A DNA stretch of 64,000 nt from an uncultured Candidatus Saccharibacteria bacterium (GCA_964605735.1 CAZSDS010000001.1:573864-637863); one strand, 5' to 3'. Shown: positions 14,008 through 41,381, numbered from the stretch's first letter. Notes: generated by a model from the letters alone, not told the origin. Made by a program: numbers and translations.

Positions 14008-16257
14008 ATGAGCAAATCAAAGACATTAGTCATAGTAGAGTCACCAACCAAAGCAAAAACCATTTCAAAATTCCTCGACGGCAAATATAAAGTCGAGGCG
14101 TCTTTTGGTCATATCCGGGACTTGCCGTCCAGCAAGATGGGCGTTGACATTGAAAACAATTTTGAACCGAAATACCTTGTTCCGCCAAAAGCAAAAAAGC
14201 GGGTGGCTGAACTGAAGAAACTTGCAAAAGACGCTCCTGAAGTAATCCTTGCTCCCGATGAAGACCGTGAAGGAGAGGCTATTGCCTGGCACTTGATAGA
14301 AGCCCTTGGTTTAAAAAAGGATAAGATCAAGCGCATCGCGTTCCATGAAATTACCAAAACTGCCATCCAGAATGCCCTGGAAAATCCACGCGACATCGAC
14401 ACCAACCTGGTAGATGCACAACAGGCGCGCCGCGTATTGGACCGCTTGGTTGGATATGAACTGTCACCTTTCTTATGGAAGAAAGTCAGGCGCGGACTTT
14501 CTGCCGGACGCGTACAGAGTGTTGCCGTCAGGCTGATTGTTGAGAGAGAGCAGGAAATCAGAAAATTCGTTCCTCAGGAATACTGGAGCATTACGGCTTT
14601 CTTCGAGAAAGACGGCAAATTCAGCGGCAAGCTGTTTAAGATCGACGGCAAGAGTTTGGATAAATTCGAAGTTAAGGATGAAGCACACGCCAAGAAAATC
14701 CTGTCCGACTTGAAACATAACCCGGCAATAGTCACGGAAGTCGTCAAAAAAGAAGTGAAGCGCTCCCCTGCTGCGCCATTCATCACCTCAACTCTTCAGC
14801 AGGAAGCTGCGCGCAAGCTTGGCTACTCCGCCAAACAGACCATGATGTACGCCCAACAGCTCTATGAAGGCGTTGAGCTTGGCGACGGCACAGCCACAGG
14901 CTTAATCACCTACATGCGTACCGACTCTGTAAACCTCTCTGAGTTTGCACTTGATTCGGCGCGCACTACCATCTCCCAGAAATTCGGCAAGGACTACCTG
15001 CTGGACACTCCGCGCAAATATTCCTCCAAGTCAAAAAACGCGCAGGAAGCCCATGAAGCCATTCGCCCAACTGACCTGACCCGCGACCCTGAAAGCGTCA
15101 AGGAACATTTGGACCGCAACCAATATCGTCTGTATGATTTGATTTGGAAACGAACCATTGCCACCCAGATGCCAGAAGCTGTATTTGACGCGACAAGCGT
15201 TGATATTGAAATCAAAGGCGACAAGAAGCAGTACATTTTCCGCGCCACCGGACAGACCATCAAGTTCGACGGCTTCATGAAAGTGTACTTGGAAGGCACT
15301 GACGACGAAGAACAGGAAGAGGAAGGAATTTTGCCTGACCTGAAAAAAGGTGATGAGCCAAAAGTCTTGCGGGTTGAACCAAAACAGCACTTTACCCAAC
15401 CGCCGCCTCGCTACACTGATGCCACACTGATCAAAGCTTTGGAAGAGCATGGCATTGGCCGCCCTTCCACCTATGCGCCAACAATTTCCACTATCCAGGA
15501 CCGCGGGTATGTGGAGAAAATCGACAAAAAATTCCACCCAACGGAAATCGGTTTTATTGTTAACGATATCCTGGTGGAACACTTCCCTAAAGTAGTTGAT
15601 CTGGCTTTTACCGCAAACATGGAAGACTCCTTGGATGAAATTGCGGAGGGCAAAAAAGAATGGGTTCCGGTGATCCGCGAATTTTACGAACCATTCCACG
15701 AGAACCTCAAAACCAAAGAAAAGGAAGTGGAAAAACACGTTGAACAACTGGATGAAAAATGCCCGGAATCCGGACATCCGCTGATTGTTAAGTTCGGCCG
15801 GTTTGGCAAGTTTATCGCCTGCTCCAACTATCCTGAGTGCAAGTACACCCGGCCAATGCCGGAAGAGCAGAAACTGATTGAGGAAAACAGCGGAGAGATC
15901 TGCGAAAAATGCGGCAAGCCTATGGTAGTCAAGTTCGGCCGGTTTGGCTCGTTCCTGGGCTGTTCCGGATACCCAGACTGCAAGAACATCAAAAAGATTC
16001 TAAAAACCACTGGCGTGGAATGTCCGCAGTGCGGCAAAGGTGAACTGGTTGAAAAGAAAAGCAAGCGCGGCACTTTTTATTCCTGCTCCAAATACCCGGA
16101 ATGCAAATTCATACTGCCAACCAAACCGACTGGCGAAAAATGCCCGCGTTGCAGATCACTGCTGATCTATGCCAAAGACGGTATGGTCAAGTGCAGCCAG
16201 AAAGGCTGTGAATTCGAAAAAGAACAGCAACCCCAAACCGAGGAAGTAAAAAATTAA
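14008..16257 (+). CDS. topA: DNA topoisomerase I with C-terminal zinc-ribbon repeats
   Basis: 749 aa. TLVIVESPTKAKTISKFLG is the Toprim domain. The C-terminus has four Cys4 ribbons (CPESGHPLIVKFGRFGKFIACSNYPECKY and repeats). Confidence 0.95.
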   Translation: MSKSKTLVIVESPTKAKTISKFLDGKYKVEASFGHIRDLPSSKMGVDIENNFEPKYLVPPKAKKRVAELKKLAKDAPEVILAPDEDREGEAIAWHLIEALGLKKDKIKRIAFHEITKTAIQNALENPRDIDTNLVDAQQARRVLDRLVGYELSPFLWKKVRRGLSAGRVQSVAVRLIVEREQEIRKFVPQEYWSITAFFEKDGKFSGKLFKIDGKSLDKFEVKDEAHAKKILSDLKHNPAIVTEVVKKEVKRSPAAPFITSTLQQEAARKLGYSAKQTMMYAQQLYEGVELGDGTATGLITYMRTDSVNLSEFALDSARTTISQKFGKDYLLDTPRKYSSKSKNAQEAHEAIRPTDLTRDPESVKEHLDRNQYRLYDLIWKRTIATQMPEAVFDATSVDIEIKGDKKQYIFRATGQTIKFDGFMKVYLEGTDDEEQEEEGILPDLKKGDEPKVLRVEPKQHFTQPPPRYTDATLIKALEEHGIGRPSTYAPTISTIQDRGYVEKIDKKFHPTEIGFIVNDILVEHFPKVVDLAFTANMEDSLDEIAEGKKEWVPVIREFYEPFHENLKTKEKEVEKHVEQLDEKCPESGHPLIVKFGRFGKFIACSNYPECKYTRPMPEEQKLIEENSGEICEKCGKPMVVKFGRFGSFLGCSGYPDCKNIKKILKTTGVECPQCGKGELVEKKSKRGTFYSCSKYPECKFILPTKPTGEKCPRCRSLLIYAKDGMVKCSQKGCEFEKEQQPQTEEVKN

Positions 16258-17166: not shown

Positions 17167-18414
17167 TTAATCATTCTTTATAAAAATGCTGTTTCCAAAT
17201 AACCAGTAGGTAAAGGCTTTCCACGGGTTCATTATTGACAGGAAATATCGCAAATCAGCAAATTTCCTAATGATCCAGCCCGGAAAACCGGAAATGATGA
17301 CGTTCTTAGTATATAGGATAGCAAATTTTCCTGCTGCAGGGATGACATATCTTGTTGGGCCAGGAAAATACGGCTGAAGCTCCTTCTCCGAAGCCATGCG
17401 GAATACATTTTTGGCAACGTGACCGCCCTGCCTGATGGCCTCCTGTGCGGTCTGGGGAACCAGTTTTTTGGTCGCAGGGTCAGTATAACAAAGATTGTCC
17501 CCGGCAATGAATACCCTGGGGTATTTTTTCAGGTTCAAAAAATCAGTGGTTGGGGTTCGGTCTTTTTTGTCCCGTTCCAAGTCGTTGGAAGCCGGCAAAC
17601 GGCAGGACCTGACTCCTCCGGTCCAGACCAGAAGATCACACGGAACACGTTCTTTGTTGTTTAAGACCACATAATCCTTGCCTGCCTCTGTGATCAAAGT
17701 GGAAAATCTCATTTCAATCTTCCTGCTGGCAAGCCTTTCCTGCAAAATTGCCGCCACTCGTTCAGACAAACCCGGCAAAAGCGTAGGCGCACCCTCAACC
17801 AGCATGAGCTTGAAATTATCCATGTTCTTGCCGTGCGTTTCGCATTCGTGCCTGATAAGGTTATGCAACTCACCGGCAAACTCTGAGCCAGCAAACCCGC
17901 CTCCCCCAATAACCAACTGGCCACTGTCTTTCTTTGACATGATTTCTTCCACGCGGTTCCTGATCATGACAGCGTCCTCCAGGCTTTTTAAGGAGAATCC
18001 GTATTTTTCAAGGTTAGGGATGCCGTAGTAATCAGCTATGCTGCCCATGGCCACCACCAAATAATCATAGTGCAAAACGCGGCTGTCAGTAGTGACCAAC
18101 CCATTCTCCATATCGATATTTTCAATGTACGCTTTGTGGACTTTAACTTTTGAACGCTTGAACACAAGGTCAAAAGGGATGGTTACGGATCGTTTTATGT
18201 TTTTTGCTTCCACCATACCGCTCTCAGCAGTTGCAGCCTCATACAGGGCCGAATAATACGTCTGATAGTCCTTCCTGTCGATGACAATAACCTGATATTC
18301 CGGCTTATGCTTGAAATATTCTGCCAAATCCAGTGCGGCGCGGATGCCGGCGAAGCCACCTCCTAGCACTATGATATTTTTTTGTTCTGAAATGTTTGAT
18401 TTTGGTGTCGACAT
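17167..18414 (-). CDS. ndh: Type II NADH dehydrogenase / FAD-dependent pyridine nucleotide-disulfide oxidoreductase
   Basis: 415 aa. It has two dinucleotide-binding GxGxxG motifs (IVLGGGFAGI and IGGGGFAGSEFA) and an overall NDH-2 architecture. Confidence 0.8.
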   Translation of the reverse strand: MSTPKSNISEQKNIIVLGGGFAGIRAALDLAEYFKHKPEYQVIVIDRKDYQTYYSALYEAATAESGMVEAKNIKRSVTIPFDLVFKRSKVKVHKAYIENIDMENGLVTTDSRVLHYDYLVVAMGSIADYYGIPNLEKYGFSLKSLEDAVMIRNRVEEIMSKKDSGQLVIGGGGFAGSEFAGELHNLIRHECETHGKNMDNFKLMLVEGAPTLLPGLSERVAAILQERLASRKIEMRFSTLITEAGKDYVVLNNKERVPCDLLVWTGGVRSCRLPASNDLERDKKDRTPTTDFLNLKKYPRVFIAGDNLCYTDPATKKLVPQTAQEAIRQGGHVAKNVFRMASEKELQPYFPGPTRYVIPAAGKFAILYTKNVIISGFPGWIIRKFADLRYFLSIMNPWKAFTYWLFGNSIFIKND

Positions 18415-18430: not shown

Positions 18431-18472
18431 AAAAAAGCACTTTGATTATATCACATTCCAAGTGCTTTTTTG
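18431..18472. terminator. Bidirectional terminator between the copper operon and ndh
   Basis: Hairpin gcactttgattatatcacattccaagtgc with A/T runs on both sides. Confidence 0.6.
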
Positions 18473-18512: not shown

Positions 18513-18779
18513 TTAGCCTTTAAGCAATTCTTCCACTTTATTTATTAATTTTGCCTTATCCAGGCCCCCTGTAGAAAACAACTCGTTGTTTATGATGATT
18601 CCGGGGGAGGCAAAAATCATGTATTTTTGCACCATTTCCTGACCTGCAGGATCCATGACTGAAACATACTCGACTTTAACTTGAGGGTATTTGGGTTTGA
18701 ATTCCTCTTCCAGGAATTTTTTGGCTTCAGCGCAATGGCTGCAACCAGGAGTTGAAAGTTCGGTTATTTTTACATCCAT
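18513..18779 (-). CDS. Thioredoxin-like (glutaredoxin-like) small protein
   Basis: 88 aa. It has a CSHC redox motif in a thioredoxin-fold context and is the last gene of the copper operon. Confidence 0.75.
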   Translation of the reverse strand: MDVKITELSTPGCSHCAEAKKFLEEEFKPKYPQVKVEYVSVMDPAGQEMVQKYMIFASPGIIINNELFSTGGLDKAKLINKVEELLKG

Positions 18780-18826
18780 ATAATTTACGTTAGCGCTTCC
18801 GGCTGTCCTACAAAGGACCGCATGCT

Positions 18827-19042
18827 CTAGGCGGCTGGCGATGAGCTGTAGCCCATATCTTTAATTGCATTATTGAAATCTTCTGGCTTCAATTTGGATT
18901 CGTCGTAAGTGACTTCGCCCAATTTGGAGTCTAAATCCACTGAGGCGGCGCTCACGCCGTCCAGATTCTGCCAGATCATTGTAATGCCAGTTGCGCAGGC
19001 ACCGCAATGCATGCCTGTGATGTTAAATTTTTGGTGTGTCAT
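18827..19042 (-). CDS. copZ: Copper chaperone CopZ (heavy-metal-associated domain)
   Basis: 71 aa with the HMA motif MHCGACA and a ferredoxin-like fold length. Confidence 0.9.
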   Translation of the reverse strand: MTHQKFNITGMHCGACATGITMIWQNLDGVSAASVDLDSKLGEVTYDESKLKPEDFNNAIKDMGYSSSPAA

Positions 19043-19331
19043 ATCTTCTTCCTGAATTTAATAGTTTTGAAATAATTTTTGAGATTATCCAAATAATCAA
19101 TAAGTCCACAATTATCACTACTGCGTATCCAAATGTGGTTGGTGTGCCGAAAATAATATCGGGTTGTGGAATAAACAAATTATTGATTCCTGCTGCCGTG
19201 AGCAGAACCAGAGGCATCATTGTAACCATAATGGCTGCAGATTCAGCCCAAACCATACCCATGGCACCTAATAACCACAAAAGCCCTAGAATCACTACCA
19301 AACTGACAAAAACTCTTTTTGCTGAAAACAT
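19023..19331 (-). CDS. Small hypothetical membrane protein (3 predicted TM helices)
   Basis: 102 aa and hydrophobic. It lies between copA and copZ and overlaps copZ by 20 nt. Confidence 0.5.
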   Translation of the reverse strand: MFSAKRVFVSLVVILGLLWLLGAMGMVWAESAAIMVTMMPLVLLTAAGINNLFIPQPDIIFGTPTTFGYAVVIIVDLLIIWIISKIISKLLNSGRRYDTPKI

Positions 19332-19332
19332 A

Positions 19333-21624
19333 TTAGTTACTCCCCTCTTTTTCCTGCATCTTTTCCATGGCAGGTTTGTACAATCTCAGCATCATAGCTG
19401 AAAGCACCACTGAAACGGACGAGAAAGCCATGGCAAATCCTGCAACTTCCGGACGCAAACTGCGCAATAATTGCGGCGCCCACTCAACAGCAAACAGAGC
19501 GCCGGCTGCCACTGGAATCGAAATGATGTTGTAGATAAATGCCCAGAACAAGTTTTGCTTAACTTTAGAGATAGTTTTACGAGCCAACTGAATGGCTGAA
19601 ACCACATCACGCAAATCGTCTTTGATCAAAACAAAGCTTCCGGTTTCAATGGCCACATCAGTGCCGGACCCAATGGCAATACCCACGTCAGCTTGAGCCA
19701 GCGCAGGGGAATCGTTGATTCCATCCCCTACCATAGCCACAACCTTGCCTTCAGACTGCAGCTGTTTAACAACCTCTGCTTTCTTTTCCGGCAAAACTTT
19801 CGCCATGACGCGGTCAATCCCCACTGTGCGAGCAATCGCTTCTGCGGTGTTTTGGTTGTCACCTGTGATCATGACCATCTCTATGCCCATTTTCTTAAGC
19901 TCAGCAATAGCCTCTTTTGCATACGGCTTCAAAGTGTCGGCCATGGCGACCAGGGCCTGTACCTTGCCGTCTACCGCTGCAAAAATAACTGTCTTAGCCT
20001 CACTGGCGAGCCTGCTCAATTGCGGAGCAAGACTGGCGTGTTCAACACCTGCCTTGTCCATCATAGCTTCGTTCCCAACCACAATATGCAGTTTCTTGAT
20101 GTCCCCTTCCGCACCCATACCAGCTGTTGCTTTGAAATTTTTCAGCTCCTCCACTTTAGCTCCCTTGCTTTGCGCGTATTTAACAATTGCCTGAGCCAGC
20201 GGGTGTTCTGAGCCTTTTTCCACTGCGGCAATTAAAGGCAGTAACTCGGCCTCGCTGTAATTTCCAGTCAGGACAATGTCAGTCACAGCGGGCTCACCCT
20301 TGGTCAGGGTTCCAGTCTTGTCAAAAGCAATGGCGTTCAAATGCTTTGCGCGTTCAATTGCTTCACCTCCTTTGGCCAAAATCCCATACTCAGCACTTTT
20401 CCCGATGCCAACGATCAAAGCCATAGGAGTGGCCAAACCCAAAGCACACGGACAGGAAATAACCAGCACAGCAATTCCTTTTATCAAGGCCTCGCGGAAC
20501 GGGAAATCGCCCACAAAATACCAGGCTCCGAACACAAGCACTGCCAGAACAATGATAAACGGCACAAAATATTCAGCAATTTTGTCGGCTAAGCCCTGGA
20601 TAGGGGCCTTGGTCGCCTGTGCATCCTCAACCATGCGCACAATCTGGTTAAGCAAAGTGTCCTTGCCGACTTTCTCAGCTTTGAATTTGAACAAACCGTA
20701 GGAGTTAACCGTGGCACCAATCACCTTGTCCCCTGCTTTCTTGTTCACCGGCATACTTTCGCCGGTAACGACTTTTTCGTCTATCGCAGTTTCTCCTTCA
20801 ATCATTGTTCCGTCCACCGGAACTTTTTCACCCGGCTTGACTATGACTGTGTCGCCAACCTTAACCTGATCAACAGGAACTTTCATTTCTGACCCATCTC
20901 GGACCACAGTCGCTTCTTTCGCTTCCAGTTTCAAAAGTTTTTTCACTGCATCAGAAGCTTTGGCGCGGGCGGTAATTTCCAAATATCTTCCTAGCAAAAT
21001 AAACGACATCAAAGCCGCGGATGATTCCCAATATGGGTGGTCGATATTAAAGAATAAAAATCCGATCATGGAATACAGGTATGCGGCGGTGGTACCCAAA
21101 ACAACCAGCACGTCCATATTCGCACTGCCTGCGCGCAAAGCAGACCAGGCATTGCGGTAAAACGGCCACCCTACTCCAAACTGCACCCACGTGGACATGA
21201 TCCAGTAAATGTAGTTCAAATCAATGCCGCCGATGGCATGCACGTGCTTCAAGTTGAAAATGTGCACGGCCATGTAGTAAACGATAATCGGCGTGGAAAT
21301 TGCAAATGCCAGCCAAACGCGGCGCTTGGCAGAAATCATTTCCTGTTTGCGATGCTTTTCCACTTCGCCTGAATGGTCTTTTTCCTCATCTGGACGGACA
21401 AGGTCATAACCTAATTTATGTAAAAACTCGTCCATCTGGACCAGGGTGATTTTGGCCGGATCAAAAGTCAGTTTTACGCGTTCTGCGCCGAAGCTGGCTT
21501 CCGCCTGCAAAATCCCCGGCTGTTTGGCCAACAACTTGTTAATCAAAAGCGCGCACGCAGCACAATGCATGCCGCGCACGCGCAGGACCAAAGATTCTGT
21601 TTTCGCCACTACTGCTTCTGGCAT
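19333..21624 (-). CDS. copA: Copper-translocating P1B-type ATPase
   Basis: 763 aa. It has an N-terminal HMA domain (MHCAACA), the CPC metal-translocation motif (CPCALGLATP) and the DKTGTLT phosphorylation site. Confidence 0.95.
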   Translation of the reverse strand: MPEAVVAKTESLVLRVRGMHCAACALLINKLLAKQPGILQAEASFGAERVKLTFDPAKITLVQMDEFLHKLGYDLVRPDEEKDHSGEVEKHRKQEMISAKRRVWLAFAISTPIIVYYMAVHIFNLKHVHAIGGIDLNYIYWIMSTWVQFGVGWPFYRNAWSALRAGSANMDVLVVLGTTAAYLYSMIGFLFFNIDHPYWESSAALMSFILLGRYLEITARAKASDAVKKLLKLEAKEATVVRDGSEMKVPVDQVKVGDTVIVKPGEKVPVDGTMIEGETAIDEKVVTGESMPVNKKAGDKVIGATVNSYGLFKFKAEKVGKDTLLNQIVRMVEDAQATKAPIQGLADKIAEYFVPFIIVLAVLVFGAWYFVGDFPFREALIKGIAVLVISCPCALGLATPMALIVGIGKSAEYGILAKGGEAIERAKHLNAIAFDKTGTLTKGEPAVTDIVLTGNYSEAELLPLIAAVEKGSEHPLAQAIVKYAQSKGAKVEELKNFKATAGMGAEGDIKKLHIVVGNEAMMDKAGVEHASLAPQLSRLASEAKTVIFAAVDGKVQALVAMADTLKPYAKEAIAELKKMGIEMVMITGDNQNTAEAIARTVGIDRVMAKVLPEKKAEVVKQLQSEGKVVAMVGDGINDSPALAQADVGIAIGSGTDVAIETGSFVLIKDDLRDVVSAIQLARKTISKVKQNLFWAFIYNIISIPVAAGALFAVEWAPQLLRSLRPEVAGFAMAFSSVSVVLSAMMLRLYKPAMEKMQEKEGSN

Positions 21625-22040
21625 TAGATTACCTCAAGCGTCCCGATCATATCGAAATGATCCCGGGTTTCGCCATTAACCTCGCCCTTGCCGCATGGAA
21701 CTGAACAATAAAAATTAAATTTACCTTTTCTGGTTGCCACCACGCTTCTTGTCACGGTTTTGTTCGCTGGCATTTTCTCGTTAACCCCGTAACCGTCAAT
21801 ACCAATACCGTGGTCGTAATCATCCTCGTTGATGAAAGTAAAATTTATTTTGTCTCCGGCGTTTACCTGGACGTTTGTCACATCCCAGCGCCATTCGTCC
21901 TTAACTGCCCTGATGGTTATGTTTACTTCTTTGCCAGTCGCCTCAACCACCTTATCACTTTGCCCTTTCATGTTTTTAAAGATAACTCCGCCTACCAGGA
22001 ACACCGCAACAACAATTCCGATAATAACGTACTTGTTCAT
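21624..22040 (-). CDS. Cupredoxin-like copper-binding protein (signal anchor)
   Basis: 138 aa with an N-terminal TM helix. C-terminal residues C..C..H..M are arranged as in cupredoxins (FYCSVPCGKGEVNGETRDHFDM). Confidence 0.55.
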   Translation of the reverse strand: MNKYVIIGIVVAVFLVGGVIFKNMKGQSDKVVEATGKEVNITIRAVKDEWRWDVTNVQVNAGDKINFTFINEDDYDHGIGIDGYGVNEKMPANKTVTRSVVATRKGKFNFYCSVPCGKGEVNGETRDHFDMIGTLEVI

Positions 22041-22042
22041 AT

Positions 22043-24613
22043 TTAAACCTTAATCCTTTCTTCGTTTAAGTATCTAAAGATAAATGGCATAACTGCCGCA
22101 ATCAACAAGATCGAGACCAGAGCCAGCAACCATTTAGGCAGGCCCTGGGACGGCAAAGGTTCTCCTACATTGACCCAGAATTCCGCCAGCCTGACCTCGC
22201 TTGGATTGTCTTGCGTGACGAATTCGGTGAAAATTTTGTAGCGGCCCGGTTCAGGGAAAGCAAAAGCAATTCGCATATCCTTTTCGTTGAAGCTTATTAT
22301 TTCCTCGCCGGGGGCAGTGCCGTGCATATGACCTGCACCTTCATCAGCCTGCGCCTTGGGAATCAAGGACCAACTCAGCGAAGATGGAGCTGAACCGTGC
22401 ATATGCGCCCCTCCCCCATGGCCGTCAGTTCCTATCATGCCGTAATTGGTATGCAAATGATGATAGTGCCTTACGTCAGGAGAAATAATGTTAATGTGCA
22501 TGTTCTCTTCCAGATATTTGCCAAGAGGGATATCGAACCCGCCGGCATCAGTGACGGCAAAACCAATGTTGTGTTCAGTGCCTGCATACAATTGTGTTGC
22601 GGCTTTCATCGTCACCACCAGGTTATCTTCCAATTCTTGGACTCTGGAAAAGTCAGGTTCATAGTTTGCCACAACTGCGCCGCCCTGAACCGTCAGGTCA
22701 GCCATTTTTTGCGTAACATGCGCGCCGTTATAAACTATTCCCGGCCAGATTGAATAGACTCCTGGCTGGTCAAACACATGATCAACCACAAATTTTCCGT
22801 TCACCACTTTCGGGTGGATGTGGAAGAATTCGTTTAAGTCTCCCTGGCGGGCACCAACCACGTGCATTGGTTCGCCATGTGAAATCTCCAGATTTGTCTG
22901 AGCCTGTCCGGTTTTGATATCGATTACCTCAAACGACAAAGTGGTAATAGTGTTGCCGCGAACCGTCCTGTCCGCGGTAGTCATTTTTATTTCCACCCCG
23001 GATTCTGCCGGGGTCATGGCGCCGTGGGCGTGGTCGTCAGGCGTGCCAGGAGCATGAGCATGATCGTCCATCATATCCATATGCCCCCCGTGCATTGGCG
23101 CCACCTGATACTTGTACCAATTTGGGATTGTTATAGCAAAGAGCAGGTAAAGGAAAAGCACGGCTGTTATGGTATATGCACCAAACCATTTGAAGGCACG
23201 AACTGCCTCCGGGTTATTGGCGTCAACATCCTTTTTCTTTCGGCGCCAATTCCAGATCATTGGAATGGCAATTAAAGTCACCATCAGCCAACTGCCGTAT
23301 TTAAGGTAAGGACCGGTTGGCATTTCATGAGTGTGGGCAATGCCGCCGAACTGGTTGGCATATTGAGTCATGAAAGAAGCCTCCTGGGTGATCTGTTCCA
23401 GCAATGAATGCAGGCCGGAGTAAACATACCAATCGTGGCCAAGCAAACCGAAGGTCAAAATAAACGCGCCTACGCCAACTACGCCCCAGGCAGTGGCTCG
23501 AGTCAGCGCTTCGCGGCGCTTCATCAACACCGTCAGGGCATCAACGCCAAGTACTGCCAAAATTGCCAACAGCAACAGCGGCGTTACACGGCCAACGGCA
23601 TGGATGAAGGTCAAAAACCATCCCTGGCTCATGCTCCCCACAGTGGCAATGTGCGCGAGCAAAACATAAAAAGCCGGGTTCGGGCAGCCAAGCCCCACAT
23701 TACCCAGCAACAAACCTAGTAAAAATCCCTTTGCTGCGTCTTTTCTGTCCTGAATAAATTTTGGAAACGCACCTGCGTAAGTTGGGACGCGCATTTTGAT
23801 CAGACCGAGTTCGCCAAATCCGAATACCACAGCAAACACACCTGCAATCAGATACATAGTGTCTTTGGCGCGGTCCAGACCAACCACTTCACCAAGCTTG
23901 GCAATCAAGGCGCCGTACATACTGAGAGTCAGCGTAACTCCAAGTGCAAAAGCAAAAGCAATAGTTAATCCTTTTTTAGGATCTTTGCCCATGGCCAGCG
24001 GAACAATCACGAATGCCAGCGGCAAAGTACAAGGCAGAACAATCATGGACAAACCCGTGGCATATGAAAATGCCAGCCAACCTGTCTGATCTTTGGTTGT
24101 GCTGGACAACCAGAACAACCCAATCAAAATTATCGAAAACAAAACAAAAGCAGAAACTACCAGTGCAATGCGGAAACGTTTCTGCTTGTCGCTTAAGGTC
24201 AGCTTAGGGCCAGCCGGAGTGCTTGTTGAGGATACAATCTCAGTTTTTGCCGGCTGGTTTTTAGGGGAAAATGTGCTGAAGAATACTGCCAGCGATCCGC
24301 CAAGGATGGCCAAGTCCCGAAAAGTCACTGCATCAATGCCATATAAGAGCAAAATCGCGACCATTTCCAGGGCTGAAATAAAAGCCGCTGGCCTCAAAAA
24401 GAATCCTGAAATGAATGCCAGCGCCAAAAGTATTTCCACCCCGCCCTGGATTTGGATAAACGTCAGGACGTCCACTGGCAACAGGTTTTTGACCCAGAAT
24501 GGGACGAAATTTGACCAGGACGCCGGACTCGTCATTAAATCAAAGCCGGAGAAAATATAAGTAAAAGCCAAACCAAAACGAAGAATTAGGTTCGATACTT
24601 TTGAATAATTCAT
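22043..24613 (-). CDS. Large multidomain membrane protein. Domains: an N-terminal DoxX-like TM domain, a DsbD/CcdA-type thiol-disulfide transporter core, and His/Met-rich periplasmic metal-binding segments with a C-terminal TM anchor.
   Basis: 856 aa. The N-terminus (FTYIFSGFDLM...) is DoxX-like. The LPCTLP motif sits in a multi-TM core typical of CcdA/DsbD. The soluble part carries His clusters (HGGHMDMMDDHAHAPGTPDDHAHGAM, HYHHLHTNYGMIGTDGHGGGAHMHG and GAGHMHGTAPG). Confidence 0.6.
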   Translation of the reverse strand: MNYSKVSNLILRFGLAFTYIFSGFDLMTSPASWSNFVPFWVKNLLPVDVLTFIQIQGGVEILLALAFISGFFLRPAAFISALEMVAILLLYGIDAVTFRDLAILGGSLAVFFSTFSPKNQPAKTEIVSSTSTPAGPKLTLSDKQKRFRIALVVSAFVLFSIILIGLFWLSSTTKDQTGWLAFSYATGLSMIVLPCTLPLAFVIVPLAMGKDPKKGLTIAFAFALGVTLTLSMYGALIAKLGEVVGLDRAKDTMYLIAGVFAVVFGFGELGLIKMRVPTYAGAFPKFIQDRKDAAKGFLLGLLLGNVGLGCPNPAFYVLLAHIATVGSMSQGWFLTFIHAVGRVTPLLLLAILAVLGVDALTVLMKRREALTRATAWGVVGVGAFILTFGLLGHDWYVYSGLHSLLEQITQEASFMTQYANQFGGIAHTHEMPTGPYLKYGSWLMVTLIAIPMIWNWRRKKKDVDANNPEAVRAFKWFGAYTITAVLFLYLLFAITIPNWYKYQVAPMHGGHMDMMDDHAHAPGTPDDHAHGAMTPAESGVEIKMTTADRTVRGNTITTLSFEVIDIKTGQAQTNLEISHGEPMHVVGARQGDLNEFFHIHPKVVNGKFVVDHVFDQPGVYSIWPGIVYNGAHVTQKMADLTVQGGAVVANYEPDFSRVQELEDNLVVTMKAATQLYAGTEHNIGFAVTDAGGFDIPLGKYLEENMHINIISPDVRHYHHLHTNYGMIGTDGHGGGAHMHGSAPSSLSWSLIPKAQADEGAGHMHGTAPGEEIISFNEKDMRIAFAFPEPGRYKIFTEFVTQDNPSEVRLAEFWVNVGEPLPSQGLPKWLLALVSILLIAAVMPFIFRYLNEERIKV

Positions 24614-24712
24614 TATATGTTTATTTTAGATTTCTGGGGACGAACTTTTATGTACACTAATTATAGCACAAATATGCGTTTTTGTAAAAAATTTGCGCTT
24701 AGCTCAGTTATG

Positions 24713-25512: not shown

Positions 25513-26004
25513 ATGAAAAACAAGAGATTTTCCTTTTGGGATTGGTATCAAAAACATTTTACCATTAATGTGACTATTGCGTCTTTTTTGTTCGCCCTTC
25601 AGCTGTTTCACTTATACTGGCTGTTCACTGACGTGGTTTTGGAAAGGCTTACGGGGCGCAGTTATTTTTTCTTGGATTCAGTCTGGGGCCGGTACTCAAT
25701 TTTTTTCGACTATACTGAAGTGCCAGCTTTGGTGACTACCAGCTTTGTCTATATTCACCGCTTGCGGGAAAAATTTTCCTACAAAAACCTGCTATACCTT
25801 TTAATGGTCAACTCTCAATGGCTGCACATTTTGTGGATCACTGACGAATTTGTCCTCGACCAATTCGCCGGCCGTGACATCTTCATCTGGGGCAGTGCCC
25901 TGGCCTGGATTGCAATTTTAATCGATTTCCTGGAACTGCCGGTGATTTACGACACCATCAAGCAAACCGCCCAAGAATGGCAAAAGAAAAAAGCCGGAGC
26001 CTGA
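25513..26004 (+). CDS. Hypothetical membrane protein (about 4 TM helices)
   Basis: 163 aa and Trp/Phe-rich hydrophobic. I recognise no family. Confidence 0.5.
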   Translation: MKNKRFSFWDWYQKHFTINVTIASFLFALQLFHLYWLFTDVVLERLTGRSYFFLDSVWGRYSIFFDYTEVPALVTTSFVYIHRLREKFSYKNLLYLLMVNSQWLHILWITDEFVLDQFAGRDIFIWGSALAWIAILIDFLELPVIYDTIKQTAQEWQKKKAGA

Positions 26005-28788: not shown

Positions 28789-29763
28789 TTAGATTGCTAA
28801 TTTCTCAACCTCCACTGTTTCCTTTTCTATCCTGATAAAACCGGCTATTCTTAATACTTTAAATATCGCCCAGCTTAAGAGTAATACAACCCAATTAAAG
28901 ACAAAAGCAAAGGTGCGCATCAGTGCCAGAACCAGGACCGTGAAGAACAACGGGAAAAAATCCTCATACCTCCCCAAGCCTTCCCGCAGTCTTTGCGTCG
29001 CGACCTCGGTTAGAGCCACTCTCAGAGTGACATTGTCGTCCGCGTCCACGCCGAACTGCTCTGCAAAATTCTGCCTGATCTGGTCAAGGAGCTCTCTTTG
29101 CTGGCTGGCGGAAACCTGATTGAATTCCGGATACTGCTGTTCAGCCTGCTTTCTGAAGAATTCGCTCATTCGTTGACTGAGATTGTATTGGGAGCGGTCT
29201 TGCGCCAGCAGTGGGACGCCGCTCACTGCCGTCTCGCCCAATTTTCTGTAGTACTGATCGCGGTCGCGGTTAAAGTCTTCGCTGACACTGGAATAAACCA
29301 CGAATCCCAACAGAATCAAGAACGCATATGTGATGATTATCTGGCTGTTGCCAAGCGTTCGCCTGATGGAAAAGTTCAACTGGTTCGTTTCCTCCCCCTG
29401 CACGCGTCCCTGGAAAAACAAATTTAACAGGAAGAATATTACCCCGCCGATAAAAACGTAAATGTCCCTCGGCATGATCACTAAATATGTAATCAGCCCG
29501 ATGGCGTTGAAGATGAAAAAGGTGAATTTATCCGGCCTGGTTAAGGCAAAGATGCTGACCACCGCCACCCAGACTGCAGAAACCCCGGCGGTGTAAGCCC
29601 AGAAACTGGGATGCCTGCCGCCGAACATGGATTCGCTCAACATCCACCAGTTTAAAACCAGCAGAGCAGAAGACAACAACCCCAAACTAATTTGCTTGAA
29701 ATGCTTTCTGGCTTCAGATCTGTTCGCCTGCGCCTGCCTAATGCTCTCGCCGATTTGTTCCAT
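28789..29763 (-). CDS. Hypothetical polytopic membrane protein inserted between dnaK and dnaJ
   Basis: About 324 aa from the internal ATG at 29763. The track ORF to 29874 would overlap the upstream gene by 95 nt, so the start is ambiguous. It has at least four TM helices and a Q-rich soluble segment. I recognise no family. Confidence 0.5.
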
Positions 29764-29779
29764 ATTTGTTTTATGAAGG

Positions 29780-30085
29780 TTAAGATTGGGTTTTAAAGCC
29801 GAAGTCCGATTTTGACTGCGACTCACCTTCATTAATTGTACCAAATTGTTGCTCGTAGCGGCCGAGATTTTCATTCAGTGCCGCCAGGATGCGCTTGAAG
29901 TGCCCTGGACTGACAATCACCCTTGAGCCAACAATCCCCTGCTGGCCCACAACGTTCATGAAGTCAAAAATGAACTCTTCTTTGGTATGTATGACCTGCA
30001 TCAGGTTTGAATAGAAACCTTGAAGCTTGTCATCATTAATCTTGATTTGGATCTGCTGGCCCTGGTTTGGTGGTTGTTGTGACAT
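29780..30085 (-). CDS. DUF3467-like small protein
   Basis: 101 aa. FYSNLMQVIHTKEEFIFDFMNV...SRVIVSPGHFKRILAALNENLGRYE matches the DUF3467 pattern as I recall it (ysNl..i.hs..EF.lDF...sRii.sP.haKrll.aL.eNi..YE). Confidence 0.55.
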   Translation of the reverse strand: MSQQPPNQGQQIQIKINDDKLQGFYSNLMQVIHTKEEFIFDFMNVVGQQGIVGSRVIVSPGHFKRILAALNENLGRYEQQFGTINEGESQSKSDFGFKTQS

Positions 30086-39615: not shown

Positions 39616-40116
39616 TTACAGCCGCACGCTCACAGGATTGTGGGCGGGTTTGGGAGAAACCCAGGAGCTGAAGGTTTTCCGTTCCAGGAACCGGGTCCGG
39701 CGGCGCGACCGCTTCTTCCGTTTGGTGACACACTGGCGAACTGCTTCGCGCCGCAATTTCTCGCGGAGCCTGAGCAACTCGGTAGGACTGTGATCATGCC
39801 CCCATCTGCGCCCGACAGGAAAAACAGTGCTCGTCCACCGGCCGCTGATTTCGTTGCGGCGGCAAATGACAATGTGACGCAGATTCACGCCATTGTTAAG
39901 TGGAACCGTACGTCCCACCGCCTCCAACAGAGTAACAAGGCCAAGCCGCGCCAGCCTGACTTGGTAGAGCTTGCAATGGCCTCCAAGTTTGAAATGCACA
40001 TGGACTTCGCACTCGGAGGGCAATACATCTCCCCATTTCAGAGCTGAAATACGACCCCAGCGAACCTCGTCTCCCCGCTTCTTGAAGTGAACAGCCAACT
40101 GTCCGCGACGTTTCAT
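39616..40116 (-). CDS. Arg-rich GC-rich ORF, tentatively a degenerate DUF559-like endonuclease-fold protein
   Basis: 166 aa. ECEVHVHFKLGGH and NLRHIVICRRNEI loosely match the DUF559 core. It lies at the left end of the GC-rich island. An antisense ORF (39640..40047) is equally long, so the coding strand is uncertain. Confidence 0.3.
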   Translation of the reverse strand: MKRRGQLAVHFKKRGDEVRWGRISALKWGDVLPSECEVHVHFKLGGHCKLYQVRLARLGLVTLLEAVGRTVPLNNGVNLRHIVICRRNEISGRWTSTVFPVGRRWGHDHSPTELLRLREKLRREAVRQCVTKRKKRSRRRTRFLERKTFSSWVSPKPAHNPVSVRL

Positions 40117-40239
40117 TCAACCCCCTACGGTTTGTGGGAACGAACTGTGATAACCCAAGCATAAAGAAAAAATGGATTTCGTGCAAATAAAAAACGGGGC
40201 TCCACAGAGGAGACCCCGCAAAACTTACTTGAACAAAAC

Positions 40240-41151
40240 TTACCTGAGGCGGCGAAGCCTTGTTGCCCCGCCGATCAGCGCCACCCCGAACAACAGCAGC
40301 GATGCTGGTTCCGGCACGCTCTTCCCCTGGATGACCCGGTCATGTCCGCCATAGTACTCGCCCGGCTGGAGCACGAGCGGCGTCCTGAGGTTGAAGACCA
40401 CCCGCCCGATCGGGTCGGTTGACCCGTCCTGGAAAACGCGATTCACACCGGTGTAGGAGGTGGGATTGTCCCCGCCCCAGACAATGGTGGAAAACACGTC
40501 GCCGTTGAAGCTCCCGGTGTTGACCGGCAGACATCCGACGTTCGGCTCCGTGCAGTTGCCCGTAACCGACCAGATGTTGAACCGGTAGCTCAACTCCGGG
40601 TTGTTCGGGTCAGTGATCGTGTTGTAATAGCCGTCGTAGTTGAAGTACCCGATGATCTGGTCGATGACCGTAACCTCGGTGATCTTGAAGTAACTGGCGT
40701 ACATCCAATCCCAGTTGTTGGCCTCGGCGTAGTTCTGGTAGAGCCCAGGTGTACTGGCGTTCGCCGTACCCTGCGCCTGCGCGTTGTAGAAATCGCCGTA
40801 GGTGCCGTCCTCGATGCCGTTGTTGTCGTAAACGATATTGCCGTCATTGAGGAAGGTCATGGCCTGACCGGCAGTTTCCGGAAACCATGTGTCCCGGTGC
40901 CAGATCTGCCCGGCGTAGCCCCAGGTTGTGGGATCATCCGTGATGAAAGCCATGTTGCCGCCGCTGGCGCGCGTTCCGTTTGGCTGGTTGCCGGTCGGGA
41001 ACTTGCCGCCAGTGATGGCGTAATGGTAATCGTAGATATCCGCCTGGTTGTCTGCCCCGCCGTTGAACGGAAAAATCGGACCAGCCACGGCCGCGGCCGG
41101 AACGAACGCAACCATGCACGCCAGAGCCAGGGCAGTTTTCTTGAGACTCAT
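40240..41151 (-). CDS. Secreted PEP-CTERM domain protein (exosortase substrate)
   Basis: About 303 aa from ATGATG at 41151-41154. AAGGAG is just upstream. The N-terminal signal peptide is MSLKKTALALACMVAFVPAAAVAG. The C-terminus VPEPASLLLFGVALIGGATRLRRLR is the canonical PEP motif plus TM helix plus Arg cluster. The body is Gly/Asn/Tyr-rich. Local GC is clearly above background. The 519-aa track ORF is a spurious N-terminal extension that overlaps the next gene. Confidence 0.8.
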   Translation of the reverse strand: MSLKKTALALACMVAFVPAAAVAGPIFPFNGGADNQADIYDYHYAITGGKFPTGNQPNGTRASGGNMAFITDDPTTWGYAGQIWHRDTWFPETAGQAMTFLNDGNIVYDNNGIEDGTYGDFYNAQAQGTANASTPGLYQNYAEANNWDWMYASYFKITEVTVIDQIIGYFNYDGYYNTITDPNNPELSYRFNIWSVTGNCTEPNVGCLPVNTGSFNGDVFSTIVWGGDNPTSYTGVNRVFQDGSTDPIGRVVFNLRTPLVLQPGEYYGGHDRVIQGKSVPEPASLLLFGVALIGGATRLRRLR

Positions 41152-41305
41152 CATCGCTCCTTGGAAAAAATTGTCACAACACTTTTTTCGCACTGCTTTG
41201 TTGTTCTTACTCACACCTCCTTTATTTGTATTGTGGAATGTACAATAGAAAAAGATACTAAATTTCTGAGGTTTTGTCAACGCCGGCAAAGCAATAAACA
41301 AGGCC

Positions 41306-41341
41306 AAAGAAAAAAGCGGAGCCCCAAGAAGGAACTCCGCC
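41306..41341 (-). terminator. Rho-independent terminator after PEP-CTERM gene 2
   Basis: On the minus strand, hairpin gcggagttccttcttggggctccgc followed by ttttttctttgg. Confidence 0.65.
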
Positions 41342-41381
41342 CAAAAACTGGCAGATGATATTGTGCGGACGAACCGGTGAA

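Follow-up and report, generated by a model that had tools for sequence, protein, structure and literature searches.

The window, that is, the whole stretch of 64,000 nucleotides analyzed here, from an uncultured Candidatus Saccharibacteria bacterium, contains a copper operon of six genes that is conserved in hundreds of ultra-small bacteria of the candidate phyla radiation (CPR). The operon consists of known modules in an arrangement for which we found no description. We tentatively propose, with a probability of roughly 0.45, that it forms an extracytoplasmic copper-handling line around CopZ and CopA, in which the metallation of a cupredoxin would be helped by the large fusion protein encoded by the first gene. 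A search of the literature found no paper on this operon or on the combination of a CopA pump, a CcdA/His protein, and a CuA-like cupredoxin.

Organization of the operon

ORF calling on the window identified six closely spaced ORFs on the minus strand at 18513-24613 (Table 1). The original prediction was one minus-strand operon encoding the fusion protein, a cupredoxin, CopA, a small membrane protein, CopZ, and a CSHC thioredoxin-like protein in this order, and all six ORFs matched it in coordinates and order. Adjacent genes among the first five are at most 2 nt apart and overlap by up to 20 nt, and the intergenic distance between the CopZ and thioredoxin genes is 47 nt. The putative promoter (24688-24660) was the top match in a 7.6-kb scan, in which promoter-like sites were no more common than in shuffled sequence, and is located approximately 47 nt upstream of the ATG of the fusion gene at 24613. 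It matches the consensus and probably functions as a promoter. A strong hairpin was found 3' of the thioredoxin gene (dG −13.4 kcal/mol; z = −3.8; equaled by 0 of 200 shuffles). The terminator had been predicted to be bidirectional; the hairpin is indeed bidirectional in shape, but the next gene lies on the same strand, and two-way function is therefore not needed.

Table 1. Features of the copper operon and of the domains of its fusion protein
Feature	Position	Strand	Basis or motif
σ70-like promoter, TTTACA-17 nt-TATAAT, extended TG	24660..24688	−	11/12 consensus matches
856-aa fusion protein (DoxX-like, CcdA core, two YtkA-like domains, TM anchor)	22043..24613	−	
DoxX-like 4-helix membrane module, residues 1-113	24275..24613	−	Pfam DoxX, four predicted helices
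Lead-in TM helix and 6-TM CcdA/DsbD core, residues 149-391	23441..24169	−	DsbD_TM, C195, C310
Outside loop, then two extra TM helices with cytoplasmic RRKKK turn, residues 392-496	23126..23440	−	
Disordered His/Met-rich linker HGGHMDMMDDHAHAPGTPDDHAHGAM, residues 497-539	22997..23125	−	pLDDT <50
β-Sandwich domain 1, residues 540-645	22679..22996	−	H579, M583-H584, H598-x-H600-P
β-Sandwich domain 2, residues 655-817	22163..22651	−	M705-H706, H719-x-H721
C-terminal TM anchor, residues 828-846, then cytoplasmic tail RYLNEERIKV	22076..22132	−	Topology, AF2
138-aa signal-anchored cupredoxin, CuA-type ligands	21624..22040	−	Cupredoxin_1, NosZ CuA domain
763-aa P1B-type Cu(I)-exporting ATPase CopA	19333..21624	−	TIGR01511, CPC motif
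102-aa small membrane protein, Cys-free	19023..19331	−	Family-less
71-aa copper chaperone CopZ	18827..19042	−	GMHCGAC; HMA, CopZ NCBIfam models
88-aa cytoplasmic thioredoxin-like protein, CSHC	18513..18779	−	Thioredoxin_3
Terminator hairpin, 12-bp stem, A-run on one side, U-run on the other	18431..18471	−	Folding energy

The fusion protein and its relatives

Domain searches and topology agreed with the original reading of the 856-aa protein as a DoxX-type TM domain, a CcdA/DsbD core (LPCTLP), a His/Met-rich outside region, and a C-terminal anchor, and this reading is right. The AF2 model of the full-length protein has a mean pLDDT of 81.7. The middle of the protein is a true CcdA/DsbD core: DsbD_TM (PF02683) matched residues 182-352 with 33.8 bits (gathering score, 27.1) and matched all 63 homologues (best E, 5.9e-14). 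The sole two cysteines of the fusion, C195 (LPCTLP) and C310 (GCPNP), are located one in TM1 and one in TM4 and are invariant together with their flanking prolines in the 63 sequences; exactly two cysteines are present in 52 of the 63 homologues. The positive-inside rule gives a consistent loop placement for this core. The outside loop that follows (within residues 392-496) contains invariant H393, H402, H427, and H429, as well as D394, W395, and E406, and may bind metal through its histidines. At the N terminus, Pfam DoxX (PF07681) matched residues 9-89 with 21.5 bits (E, 3.7e-4), just under the gathering score of 23.6, and the profile matched 13 of the 63 homologues (best E, 7.6e-6). This module showed 36% identity (E, 4e-19) with a 129-aa protein that Ca. 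Ryanbacteria encodes in its own gene upstream of that for CcdA, and the module has no conserved Cys or His.

The positive-inside rule and the AF2 model place the His loop and both β-sandwich domains outside. His/Met clusters are present at residues 508-531, in the linker, and at residues 732-765, in a disordered, His/Met/Gly-rich insertion of domain 2 (residues 731-765). The sequence of the linker itself is not conserved, and its His plus Met content has a median of 19% in the 63 homologues. The AF2 model of the β-sandwich region has a pLDDT of 87, and each β-sandwich domain bears an H...HxH triad that is invariant in the homologue alignment. Since nearly all of the top matches listed contain at least two stretches that fit the domain-1 profile, the two domains are homologous repeats. 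Pfam YtkA-like (PF13115) gave no match to the window fusion at E <= 0.1, leaving it below the threshold, and matched 7 of the 63 homologues (best E, 3.2e-7), as well as stand-alone relatives weakly. On the basis of these matches in relatives, the soluble domains appear to be YtkA/CtaK-like. They are extracytoplasmic, membrane-tethered β-sandwiches that combine conserved His/Met with a His-rich tail. Their closest fold match was H. pylori CrdA (PDB 9ll2); β-sandwich fold matches are promiscuous, and a Foldseek search with the two-domain model returned generic tandem Ig-like matches only. The fold, the invariant residues, and the natural fusions described below suggest that the His-triad domains capture copper.

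The possibility that the fusion is an artifact of frameshifted concatenation was excluded, because a 797-kb contig encodes an identical protein and the fusion is kept in another 15 full-length homologues (853-886 aa, 57-78% identity) from independent metagenomes. In Patescibacteria, a relative is encoded by 512 species genomes, and the architecture of CcdA plus His domains occurs in hundreds of Patescibacteria under the database label 'cytochrome c biogenesis protein CcdA.' The original prediction did not recognize the fusion as a described protein; we likewise found no description, but the architecture is widespread and annotated as CcdA. The joining of CcdA to His domains is thus not a one-off, and what is clade-specific is limited to the added DoxX part.

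A recurring cluster of thioredoxin, DoxX, CcdA/His protein, cupredoxin, CopA, and CopZ was observed in Patescibacteria. Among 41 loci, all from different species and with sufficient flanking sequence, the neighbors were cupredoxin (40 loci), CopA (39), thioredoxin (36), CopZ (35), and DoxX (25), and no further conserved neighbor was found at the loci examined. DoxX is mostly encoded by its own gene directly upstream in the relatives. It is fused to CcdA in the window and at two other loci (L005 and L006), and to the cupredoxin at a locus of another lineage (L065); no description of either fusion was found in the literature. The His tandem is joined to Cupredoxin_1 in two proteins (P0311 and P0382). 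In Paenibacillus antri, CopA is followed by an extra TM helix and then the His tandem within a copZ-copA-csoR operon. This classical detoxification setting points to efflux or tolerance over cofactor assembly and counts against the mechanism proposed below.

The cupredoxin and its partner proteins

Cupredoxin_1 matched the 138-aa protein with 29.8 bits (cutoff, 27). This protein has a full CuA-type ligand set (H77, C112, C116, H128, and M131), which had been overlooked in the original prediction. Across 71 species, the first four ligands are 100% conserved and M131 is 62% conserved. The cupredoxin profile matched the CuA domains of NosZ (E, 1e-9) and COX2 (E, 9e-8) with all ligands aligned, and the HMMER alignment to the NosZ ligands requires an 8-residue insertion in the cupredoxin. 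Its spacing is C-x3-C-x11-H-x2-M, compared with the canonical C-x3-C-x3-H-x2-M, and the insertion is conserved family-wide. A loop 8 residues longer than in any aligned CuA, together with a methionine conserved in just 62%, speaks against the preferred mechanism; the site could alternatively be mononuclear or a Cu(I)-thiolate. The cupredoxin is the best conserved component (46-55% identity, compared with 35-39% for the fusion), and its cysteines are the sole extracytoplasmic cysteines of the cluster. Based on these cysteines and the full ligand set, the cupredoxin is likely the client of both copper and reductant delivery.

CopA scored 632.9 bits with TIGR01511 (cutoff, 397) and has the features of a P1B-1 ATPase, with one N-terminal HMA domain (residues 13-74) and the CPC motif within VISCPCALG. 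CopZ matched HMA (E, 8e-15) and the CopZ NCBIfam models (E, approximately 1e-15). The thioredoxin-like protein matched Thioredoxin_3 (E, 4e-8), and its CxxC is 98% conserved. Approximately three quarters of these motifs include His (CSHC, CVHC, CHIC, and others), whereas the classical thioredoxin motif is CGPC. At 63 of 80 loci, the cluster includes a thioredoxin-like gene whose product has the conserved CxxC and lacks an export signal. Since none of the 63 orthologues has an N-terminal hydrophobic segment, signal, or TM helix, the thioredoxin is placed on the cytoplasmic donor side. The 102-aa membrane protein had no match in Pfam or NCBIfam and no phmmer match in 84 loci, and is unconserved beyond close relatives.

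Possible mechanism and comparison with known systems

The original proposal that copper export, copper binding on the outside, and reductant delivery are coupled is consistent with the conserved gene cluster, and this overall interpretation is supported. In the mechanism that we favor, the fusion protein would be the membrane hub of the operon. The transfer of cytoplasmic Cu(I) from CopZ to CopA, followed by its expulsion, is established for these families, and the CopZ and CopA of the operon would act in this way. The exported copper would be caught at the outer face of the membrane by the two YtkA/CrdA-like His-triad domains and the His/Met-rich linkers. The operon's own cytoplasmic thioredoxin would reduce the CcdA core, which, judging from its family, would carry electrons across the membrane via C195/C310. 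Together they would hold the Cys pair of the cupredoxin (C112-x3-C116) reduced and make metallation possible, as the CuA-type site would take copper only with the pair as thiols. A single polypeptide would thus do the work of TlpA/Sco (thiol reduction) and PCuAC/CtaK (copper delivery) in oxidase CuA assembly. The DoxX-like module, which is joined to CcdA in the window and to the cupredoxin in a different lineage, may act as a membrane partner of this complex. The loaded cupredoxin might serve in copper buffering, oxidation, or electron transfer.

CtaK and the YtkA domain of YcnJ, the only members of the YtkA family to have been characterized, contribute to CuA assembly alongside Sco (PMC13344008, PMC9145763). 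The subunit II cysteines must stay reduced for CuA assembly, via TlpA or Sco, and CcdA moves the reducing power of cytoplasmic thioredoxin out to ResA and StoA and might reduce Sco too (PMC9145763). Among the conserved neighbors, no extracytoplasmic thioredoxin-fold acceptor (ResA, CcmG, TlpA, ScsC, or DsbC/G) was found, and a DsbA-like gene was near only 7 of 80 loci. The canonical recipient of CcdA/DsbD electrons is an extracytoplasmic thioredoxin-fold protein, and we know of no precedent for a cupredoxin being reduced directly by CcdA. CPR genomes are reported to contain copA, to have almost no respiratory chain, and to be without electron-transport complexes (PMC8672522). As Patescibacteria are generally without respiratory chains, a CuA electron-transfer protein would have no obvious partner.

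The main rival, which is unlikely in our estimation, is a copper-stress defense in the style of Scs/DsbDEG. CopA would pump, the His domains and the cupredoxin would act as an outer-face sponge or as a CopI/CrdA-like oxidizer of Cu(I), and CcdA and thioredoxin would undo copper-catalyzed disulfides in envelope proteins generally, not in the cupredoxin specifically. CopZ and CopA are the standard detoxification pair, the Paenibacillus fusion of CopA to the His tandem lies within a csoR-regulated operon, the top fold match CrdA is a copper-resistance determinant (PMC9182242), DsbD-type reductases belong to known copper-tolerance systems (PMC10907172; bioRxiv 10.1101/2020.08.17.255257), and the combination of copA with almost no respiratory chain reported for CPR genomes (PMC8672522) agrees with such a role. 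However, the conserved cluster is without a ScsC/DsbG/DsbE-like acceptor, and a generic sponge would not require the strict conservation of a complete set of CuA-like ligands or a fusion that is almost always paired with the cupredoxin (40/41).

Another reading assigns the handling of copper to the CcdA-like core itself, whose Cys pair and outer-mouth His cluster would form a thioredoxin-driven transmembrane cupric reductase or a Cu(I) conduit that would feed the His domains or be fed by them. The residues H393, H402, H427, H429, D394, and E406 do lie outside, right after TM6 of CcdA and beyond the DsbD_TM match, no Cys is present in the extracytoplasmic part of the fusion to accept electrons, and the frequent His in the thioredoxin CxxC departs from CGPC. 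We nevertheless judge this reading improbable, since P-C-x-x-P motifs are electron-shuttle motifs and, to our knowledge, no protein of the DsbD_TM family reduces or carries copper. It is hardly credible that the fusion is a plain CcdA for cytochrome c maturation that lies beside copper genes by chance, as its source annotation and the DsbD_TM match over the threshold would have it. The annotation simply mirrors the Pfam family, copper genes are conserved neighbors at approximately 40/41 loci, and no ResB/ResC/CcsBA-like gene is among the conserved neighbors; moreover, the sole CxxCH in the 64-kb window, among ORFs of 100 aa or more, belongs to a DnaJ zinc finger, and the reported lack of electron-transport complexes in CPR genomes (PMC8672522) also argues against it.

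Among known systems, the DoxX family (M. tuberculosis DoxX, B. subtilis MhqP, and DoxD-like proteins) likewise comprises small 4-TM modules in redox or thiol-stress contexts, although the match of the window module is marginal (21.5 versus 23.6 bits). The fusion shares with CcdA/DsbD-beta (PF02683, including ScsB) the 6-TM core with one catalytic Cys per half and P-C-x-x-P-type motifs, and a candidate cytoplasmic thioredoxin donor is likewise at hand. Its tie to copper parallels the genetic tie of ScsB and of DsbD of the dsbDEG operon (PMC10907172). On the other hand, it has no cysteine-bearing periplasmic alpha or gamma domain, its cluster is without a thioredoxin-fold acceptor (ScsC, ResA, CcmG, or TlpA), and it adds the His loop, two TM helices, two copper-type β-sandwich domains, the C-terminal anchor, and the N-terminal DoxX module. 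Membership in the Scs system (ScsB/ScsC) was rejected on account of the Cys-free outside parts and the absence of a ScsC-like gene from the cluster; the logic is analogous only.

CtaK and YcnJ-YtkA, which act in the assembly of CuA centers (PMC13344008, PMC9145763), resemble the window domains in being membrane-tethered extracytoplasmic β-sandwiches in which His/Met are conserved and the tail is His-rich, and in YcnJ the YtkA domain is also joined to a membrane transporter domain. The window domains differ from them in their tandem arrangement with an MH-x13-HxH(P) signature, in an anchor of TM helices instead of lipid, in having CcdA instead of CopC/CopD as the partner, and in falling under the Pfam YtkA threshold. 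Unlike in the YtkA/CtaK setting, no heme-copper oxidase is known to us in these organisms. The likeness to H. pylori CrdA (9ll2) and to the P19/Tp34/FtrA-P19 copper/iron-binding proteins, which are free-standing and soluble unlike the window domains, is one of fold at only 9-14% identity. Compared with the CuA domains of COX subunit II and NosZ, the window cupredoxin is a stand-alone, single-TM protein without an oxidase or reductase catalytic subunit, carries a conserved 8-residue GEGxVxGxxR between the second Cys and the second His, and belongs to a family with the Met in only 62%. It nonetheless aligns with them (E, 1e-9 to 1e-7) with H, C-x3-C, and H-x2-M at the ligand positions, and in both the first His and the first Cys are separated by 34 residues.

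Operon organization and products

The ORF coordinates bore out the six genes, the minus-strand orientation and the copper operon order of the original prediction, with the ORFs arranged head to tail (table). Among the first five genes, neighbours are at most 2 nt apart or overlap by up to 20 nt, and the copZ and thioredoxin genes are separated by 47 nt. The hairpin 3' of the last gene folded with a dG of −13.4 kcal/mol (z-score, −3.8), and none of 200 shuffled sequences was equally stable. This terminator had been read as bidirectional; its hairpin does stand between an A-run and a U-run, but because the downstream gene, for an NDH-2-like flavoprotein, has the same orientation, it is bidirectional in shape only.

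Features of the copper operon and of its 856-aa fusion protein
Feature	Position	Strand	Basis or remarks
Fusion protein, 856 aa	22043-24613	minus	ORF
Cupredoxin, 138 aa	21624-22040	minus	ORF; Cupredoxin_1
CopA, 763 aa	19333-21624	minus	ORF; TIGR01511
Small membrane protein, 102 aa	19023-19331	minus	ORF; no family
CopZ, 71 aa	18827-19042	minus	ORF
Thioredoxin-like protein, 88 aa	18513-18779	minus	ORF; Thioredoxin_3
Near-consensus putative promoter, TTTACA-17-TG-TATAAT	24688-24660	minus	shortly 5' of first ATG
Hairpin, 12-bp stem, A-run on one side and U-run on the other	18431-18471	minus	3' of last operon gene
DoxX-like 4-helix module	fusion residues 1-113		followed by Lys/Arg-rich cytoplasmic linker and one lead-in TM helix
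6-TM CcdA core			both cysteines of the protein, C195 (LPCTLP) and C310 (GCPNP); no others
Outside loop	fusion residues 392-440
Two extra TM helices			flank a cytoplasmic RRKKK turn, after the outside loop
Extracytoplasmic region			~320 residues
C-terminal TM anchor	fusion residues 828-846

The NDH-2-like gene (415 aa, window positions 17167-18414, minus strand; Pyr_redox_2, E 9e-37) begins ~17 nt past the hairpin, whose loop contains a TATAAT sequence. A published model for the candidate phyla radiation (CPR) has an NDH-like protein hand electrons to a cupredoxin. The gene was rejected as a member of the system since it adjoins the copper cluster in only three related loci, the closest ones (e.g. 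L006; L-numbers denote loci of relatives), and the flavoprotein is therefore probably not part of the core copper system. The 102-aa membrane protein, which matched no Pfam or NCBIfam family, was likewise rejected as a core component, as the other loci yielded no homologue of it.

CopA is a copper P1B-ATPase (TIGR01511, 633 bits) with a CPC motif and one HMA domain, and the 71-aa protein was assigned to CopZ by Pfam and NCBIfam. The thioredoxin-like protein carries a CSHC motif. Across 63 loci its orthologues are ~87 aa long with the CxxC motif near residue 14, and none of the 63 has an N-terminal hydrophobic stretch. The protein is therefore predicted to be cytoplasmic, on the donor side of CcdA, and an exported thioredoxin serving as the CcdA acceptor was rejected on the same count. 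Most of the CxxC motifs contain a His (CSHC, CVHC, CTHC, CHIC, CHTC and others), the classical thioredoxin motif being CGPC; this hints at an unusual redox potential or metal binding.

Several other ORFs of the window were recorded. Two of them had no Pfam match at E <= 0.001, a 163-aa multi-TM protein encoded shortly upstream of the operon but on the other strand (25513-26004, plus) and a 361-aa ORF adjoining dnaJ (28789-29874, minus). A 749-aa topoisomerase I-like protein (14008-16257, plus) has a long C-terminal tail with at least four repeated Cys4 zinc-ribbon motifs (CPxC...CxxC). A 519-aa ORF (40240-41799, minus) carries a terminal PEP-CTERM sorting motif (E 2.7e-6), a feature not expected of Patescibacteria, and falls within the one GC-rich patch of the window (40001-42000; GC 0.58, compared with ~0.47 elsewhere), a composition that suggests a foreign origin.

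Architecture of the fusion protein and its His tandem

The layout of the fusion protein was derived from the agreement of hydropathy, the positive-inside rule and an AF2 model (mean pLDDT 81.7). The predicted CcdA/DsbD part stood, as DsbD_TM matched residues 182-352 above its Pfam cutoff (33.8 versus 27.1 bits), whereas the DoxX match at residues 9-89 fell slightly below its own (21.5 versus 23.6 bits), which leaves the DoxX assignment of the N-terminus only marginal. Residues 480-856 matched nothing in Pfam or NCBIfam. An identical protein is encoded on a 797-kb contig, and the closest named homologue comes from Ca. Doudnabacteria, probably the group within Patescibacteria to which the window belongs. 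The same fusion is kept in 15 independent full-length homologues, so that the frameshifted concatenation considered in the original prediction was rejected and the fusion is a real protein.

In a 63-sequence alignment, both cysteines of the CcdA core and their flanking prolines are invariant, as are H393, H402, H427 and H429 of the outside loop, H584 and H598 of the first soluble domain and H706, H719 and H721 of the second; H600 is kept in at least 90% of the sequences. Exactly two cysteines are present in 52 of the 63 homologues. The fusion protein has the profile match and the Pro-flanked cysteine pair expected of CcdA, and the operon thioredoxin is a candidate electron donor; a thioredoxin-fold acceptor is missing among the conserved neighbours. 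Modelled alone, the soluble region formed two beta-sandwiches (pLDDT 87, pTM 0.85), with a disordered His/Met-rich linker ahead of domain 1 and a disordered His/Met/Gly-rich insertion within domain 2. The His and Met enrichment of the linker is kept (median 19%) although its sequence is not conserved.

The best fold match was the copper-resistance protein CrdA of H. pylori (11.0; 100 of 108 residues aligned, 2.2 A), followed by a DUF4426 protein (9.7), the Cu/Fe-binding P19 proteins Tp34, HftA and FtrA-P19 (9.3-9.6), PmoD (7.6) and CopC (7.5). Because generic Ig-like folds were mixed among these matches, and Foldseek with the two-domain model returned generic Ig-like matches only, the fold alone is suggestive and not decisive. 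Chance-level matches only were obtained when the full-length family profile was compared with PDB sequences. Pfam YtkA (PF13115) was matched by 7 of the 63 family members (best E 3.2e-7), the window protein falling below the threshold; the soluble domains may thus be regarded as YtkA-like at the level of the family. The YtkA family includes B. subtilis CtaK and the C-terminal domain of YcnJ, and CtaK and the YcnJ YtkA domain, together with Sco, assist in assembling the cytochrome caa3 CuA centre (PMC13344008, PMC9145763).

A word-index search with the soluble region alone recovered only six fragments of close relatives, and the wider family required an exhaustive search of 1.84 billion representatives with a domain-1 profile. 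This search yielded 4359 clusters (50% identity) at E <= 1e-3 and 2009 at E <= 1e-10, mostly proteins of 230-480 aa. The profile usually matched at least two stretches per protein, which indicates that the tandem is a recurrent unit and that its two domains are homologous. Three of the four short matches read (P0248, P0252 and P0263; P-numbers denote profile matches) consist of a TM helix, the two domains and a second TM helix. Outside CPR, this tandem H...HxH family also includes fusions with CopA and with cupredoxins. P0365 is a 1008-aa CopA of Paenibacillus antri, encoded in a copZ-copA-csoR operon, with the His tandem C-terminal to the pump after an extra TM helix; in P0311 and P0382 a Cupredoxin_1 domain comes after the tandem. 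The Paenibacillus antri CopA locus (L086:7001-10027, TLS51720.1) is from a cultured organism and has the tandem H...HxHP at its C-terminus. P0382 (678 aa, metagenomic, outside the CPR cluster) combines a YHYH domain, the His tandem and Cupredoxin_1 in one secreted protein, another uncharacterised copper-looking domain combination.

The cupredoxin and conservation of the cluster

The 138-aa cupredoxin, assigned by Pfam Cupredoxin_1, has the NosZ CuA domain and nitrosocyanin as its best NCBIfam matches and carries an N-terminal signal anchor, which would place the domain outside the cell. Apart from its two cysteines, the operon encodes no extracytoplasmic cysteine. In 71 species H77, C112, C116 and H128 are 100% conserved and M131 62%, and the blocks NEDDYDHG and FYCSVPCG are invariant. 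The family profile matched nitrosocyanin (3e-10), the NosZ CuA domain (1e-9) and the CuA domains of COX subunit II (9e-8). HMMER aligned DxxHG of the cupredoxin with the NosZ His ligand and YCSVPC...HFDM with YCSWFC...HMEM, so that all CuA ligands are in register. The distance of 34 residues from His to the first Cys is common to the cupredoxin and CuA, whereas a conserved 8-residue insertion between the second Cys and the second His sets the cupredoxin apart. JGI annotation pipelines label its relatives 'cytochrome c oxidase subunit II' or 'plastocyanin'.

The search for the fusion in other genomes that had been proposed as a check was performed with one genome per GTDB species, and 512 species genomes encode a relative. 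The best 80 of the 512 are nearly all Patescibacteria (Parcubacteria lineages, Levybacteria and Saccharibacteria-labelled records), with a few contigs binned elsewhere. When the locus ORFs were searched with the window proteins, the recurring gene order was thioredoxin, DoxX, CcdA plus His domains, cupredoxin, CopA and CopZ. Among the 41 loci with enough flank, the cupredoxin was present in 40, CopA in 39, thioredoxin in 36, CopZ in 35 and DoxX in 25. The cupredoxin is also the most conserved member, with 46-55% identity across Parcubacteria compared with 35-39% for the fusion protein. When the neighbouring ORFs were clustered all against all, no further conserved partner emerged; a DsbA-like gene occurs near the cluster in seven loci.

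DoxX mostly has a gene of its own, which overlaps the beginning of the CcdA gene (36% identity to the window N-terminus, E 4e-19). The DoxX-CcdA fusion is limited to the clade of the window (the window, L005 and L006), in L065 (Levybacteria) the fusion partner of DoxX is the cupredoxin, and the CcdA core and His tandem are two separate genes in five loci (L010, L035, L066, L081 and L082). This pattern of fusion and splitting suggests one physical working unit of DoxX, CcdA, the His tandem and the cupredoxin, and the five split loci are natural versions suited to testing each half alone. In L081 the split genes are ~2.6 kb apart. The DoxX-cupredoxin protein of Ca. Levybacteria is a single 313-aa ORF (L065:2591-3532), and its layout of a TM bundle and a CuA-like domain resembles oxidase subunit II. 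The gene order in L065, L047 and L067 is DoxX, cupredoxin, CopA, CopZ, CcdA/His and thioredoxin.

Possible function and comparison with known systems

CopZ hands Cu(I) to CopA for export, and the two cysteines of CcdA/DsbD cores relay electrons outwards from cytoplasmic thioredoxin. The conserved cluster accords with the predicted coupling of copper export, outside copper binding and reductant delivery, and we regard the fusion protein as an outer-face copper-binding and reductant-delivery hub of the CopA operon with a probability of about 0.85. A more specific model, to which we give slightly less than an even chance, is that the His tandem collects copper at the outer face, plausibly directly from CopA, as the Paenibacillus CopA fusion suggests; the CcdA core, fed by the operon thioredoxin, would hold C112 and C116 of the cupredoxin reduced, and the reduced cupredoxin would then be loaded with copper. 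CuA metallation is known to require reduced cysteines, provided by TlpA or Sco, and copper delivery by PCuAC or CtaK (PMC9145763).

A role in copper-stress repair like that of Scs/DsbDEG would accord with the CrdA fold match and the CopA fusion in a csoR operon, but is weakened by the lack of a thioredoxin-fold acceptor, and we consider it rather unlikely. Detoxification and assembly are not exclusive readings; once loaded, the cupredoxin might itself confer tolerance. It is improbable that the CcdA cysteines and the invariant His cluster act on copper directly, whether as a cupric reductase or as a copper conduit. The database label, cytochrome c biogenesis, is very unlikely to be right: there is no cytochrome c candidate in the window, and no heme-ligase genes are conserved nearby. 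If the model of cupredoxin reduction and loading is right, 'cytochrome c biogenesis protein' is a misleading label for these genes, and the very large uncharacterised tandem H...HxH beta-sandwich family (4359 clusters) would gain a function.

Patescibacteria are usually described as non-respiring fermenters. The cluster ties CuA-type chemistry, in a testable way, to organisms believed to be without respiration, and raises the question of what role a CuA-like protein has without a respiratory chain. As a speculative extension that we think has a small chance of being correct, Patescibacteria may possess a complete, self-contained surface assembly line (copper export, chaperoning and thiol reduction) for an orphan binuclear CuA-type protein, with a membrane electron conduit in the form of the DoxX-like module, whose fusion partner is one or the other protein depending on the lineage. 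Such an assembly line would imply that an extracytoplasmic electron-transfer or copper-redox activity is widespread in CPR and has gone unrecognised.

The modules (CopA, CopZ, CcdA, the YtkA-like domain, cupredoxin, DoxX and thioredoxin) are all known. Neither a CcdA-YtkA fusion nor this CPR cluster was found described in about 8 million published full texts, and literature searches for CcdA, cupredoxin and CopA in Patescibacteria and for DoxX, CcdA and copper gave no match. One CPR paper mentions a 'putative cupredoxin' only as a possible electron donor to NirK (PMC5581439), and another singles out copA as noteworthy (PMC8672522). In the literature found, neither the architecture nor the conserved six-part system is described, and the cluster is among the few conserved multi-gene redox/metal systems in Patescibacteria.

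The fusion operon is not a member of the Scs system. With respect to CuA-site assembly, the model of cupredoxin reduction and loading, if right, would make the fusion protein a minimal one-polypeptide answer to the need for reduced cysteines and chaperoned copper, and the assembly line, if real, would contain the first CcdA-type shuttle to act directly on a cupredoxin with no thioredoxin-fold intermediary.
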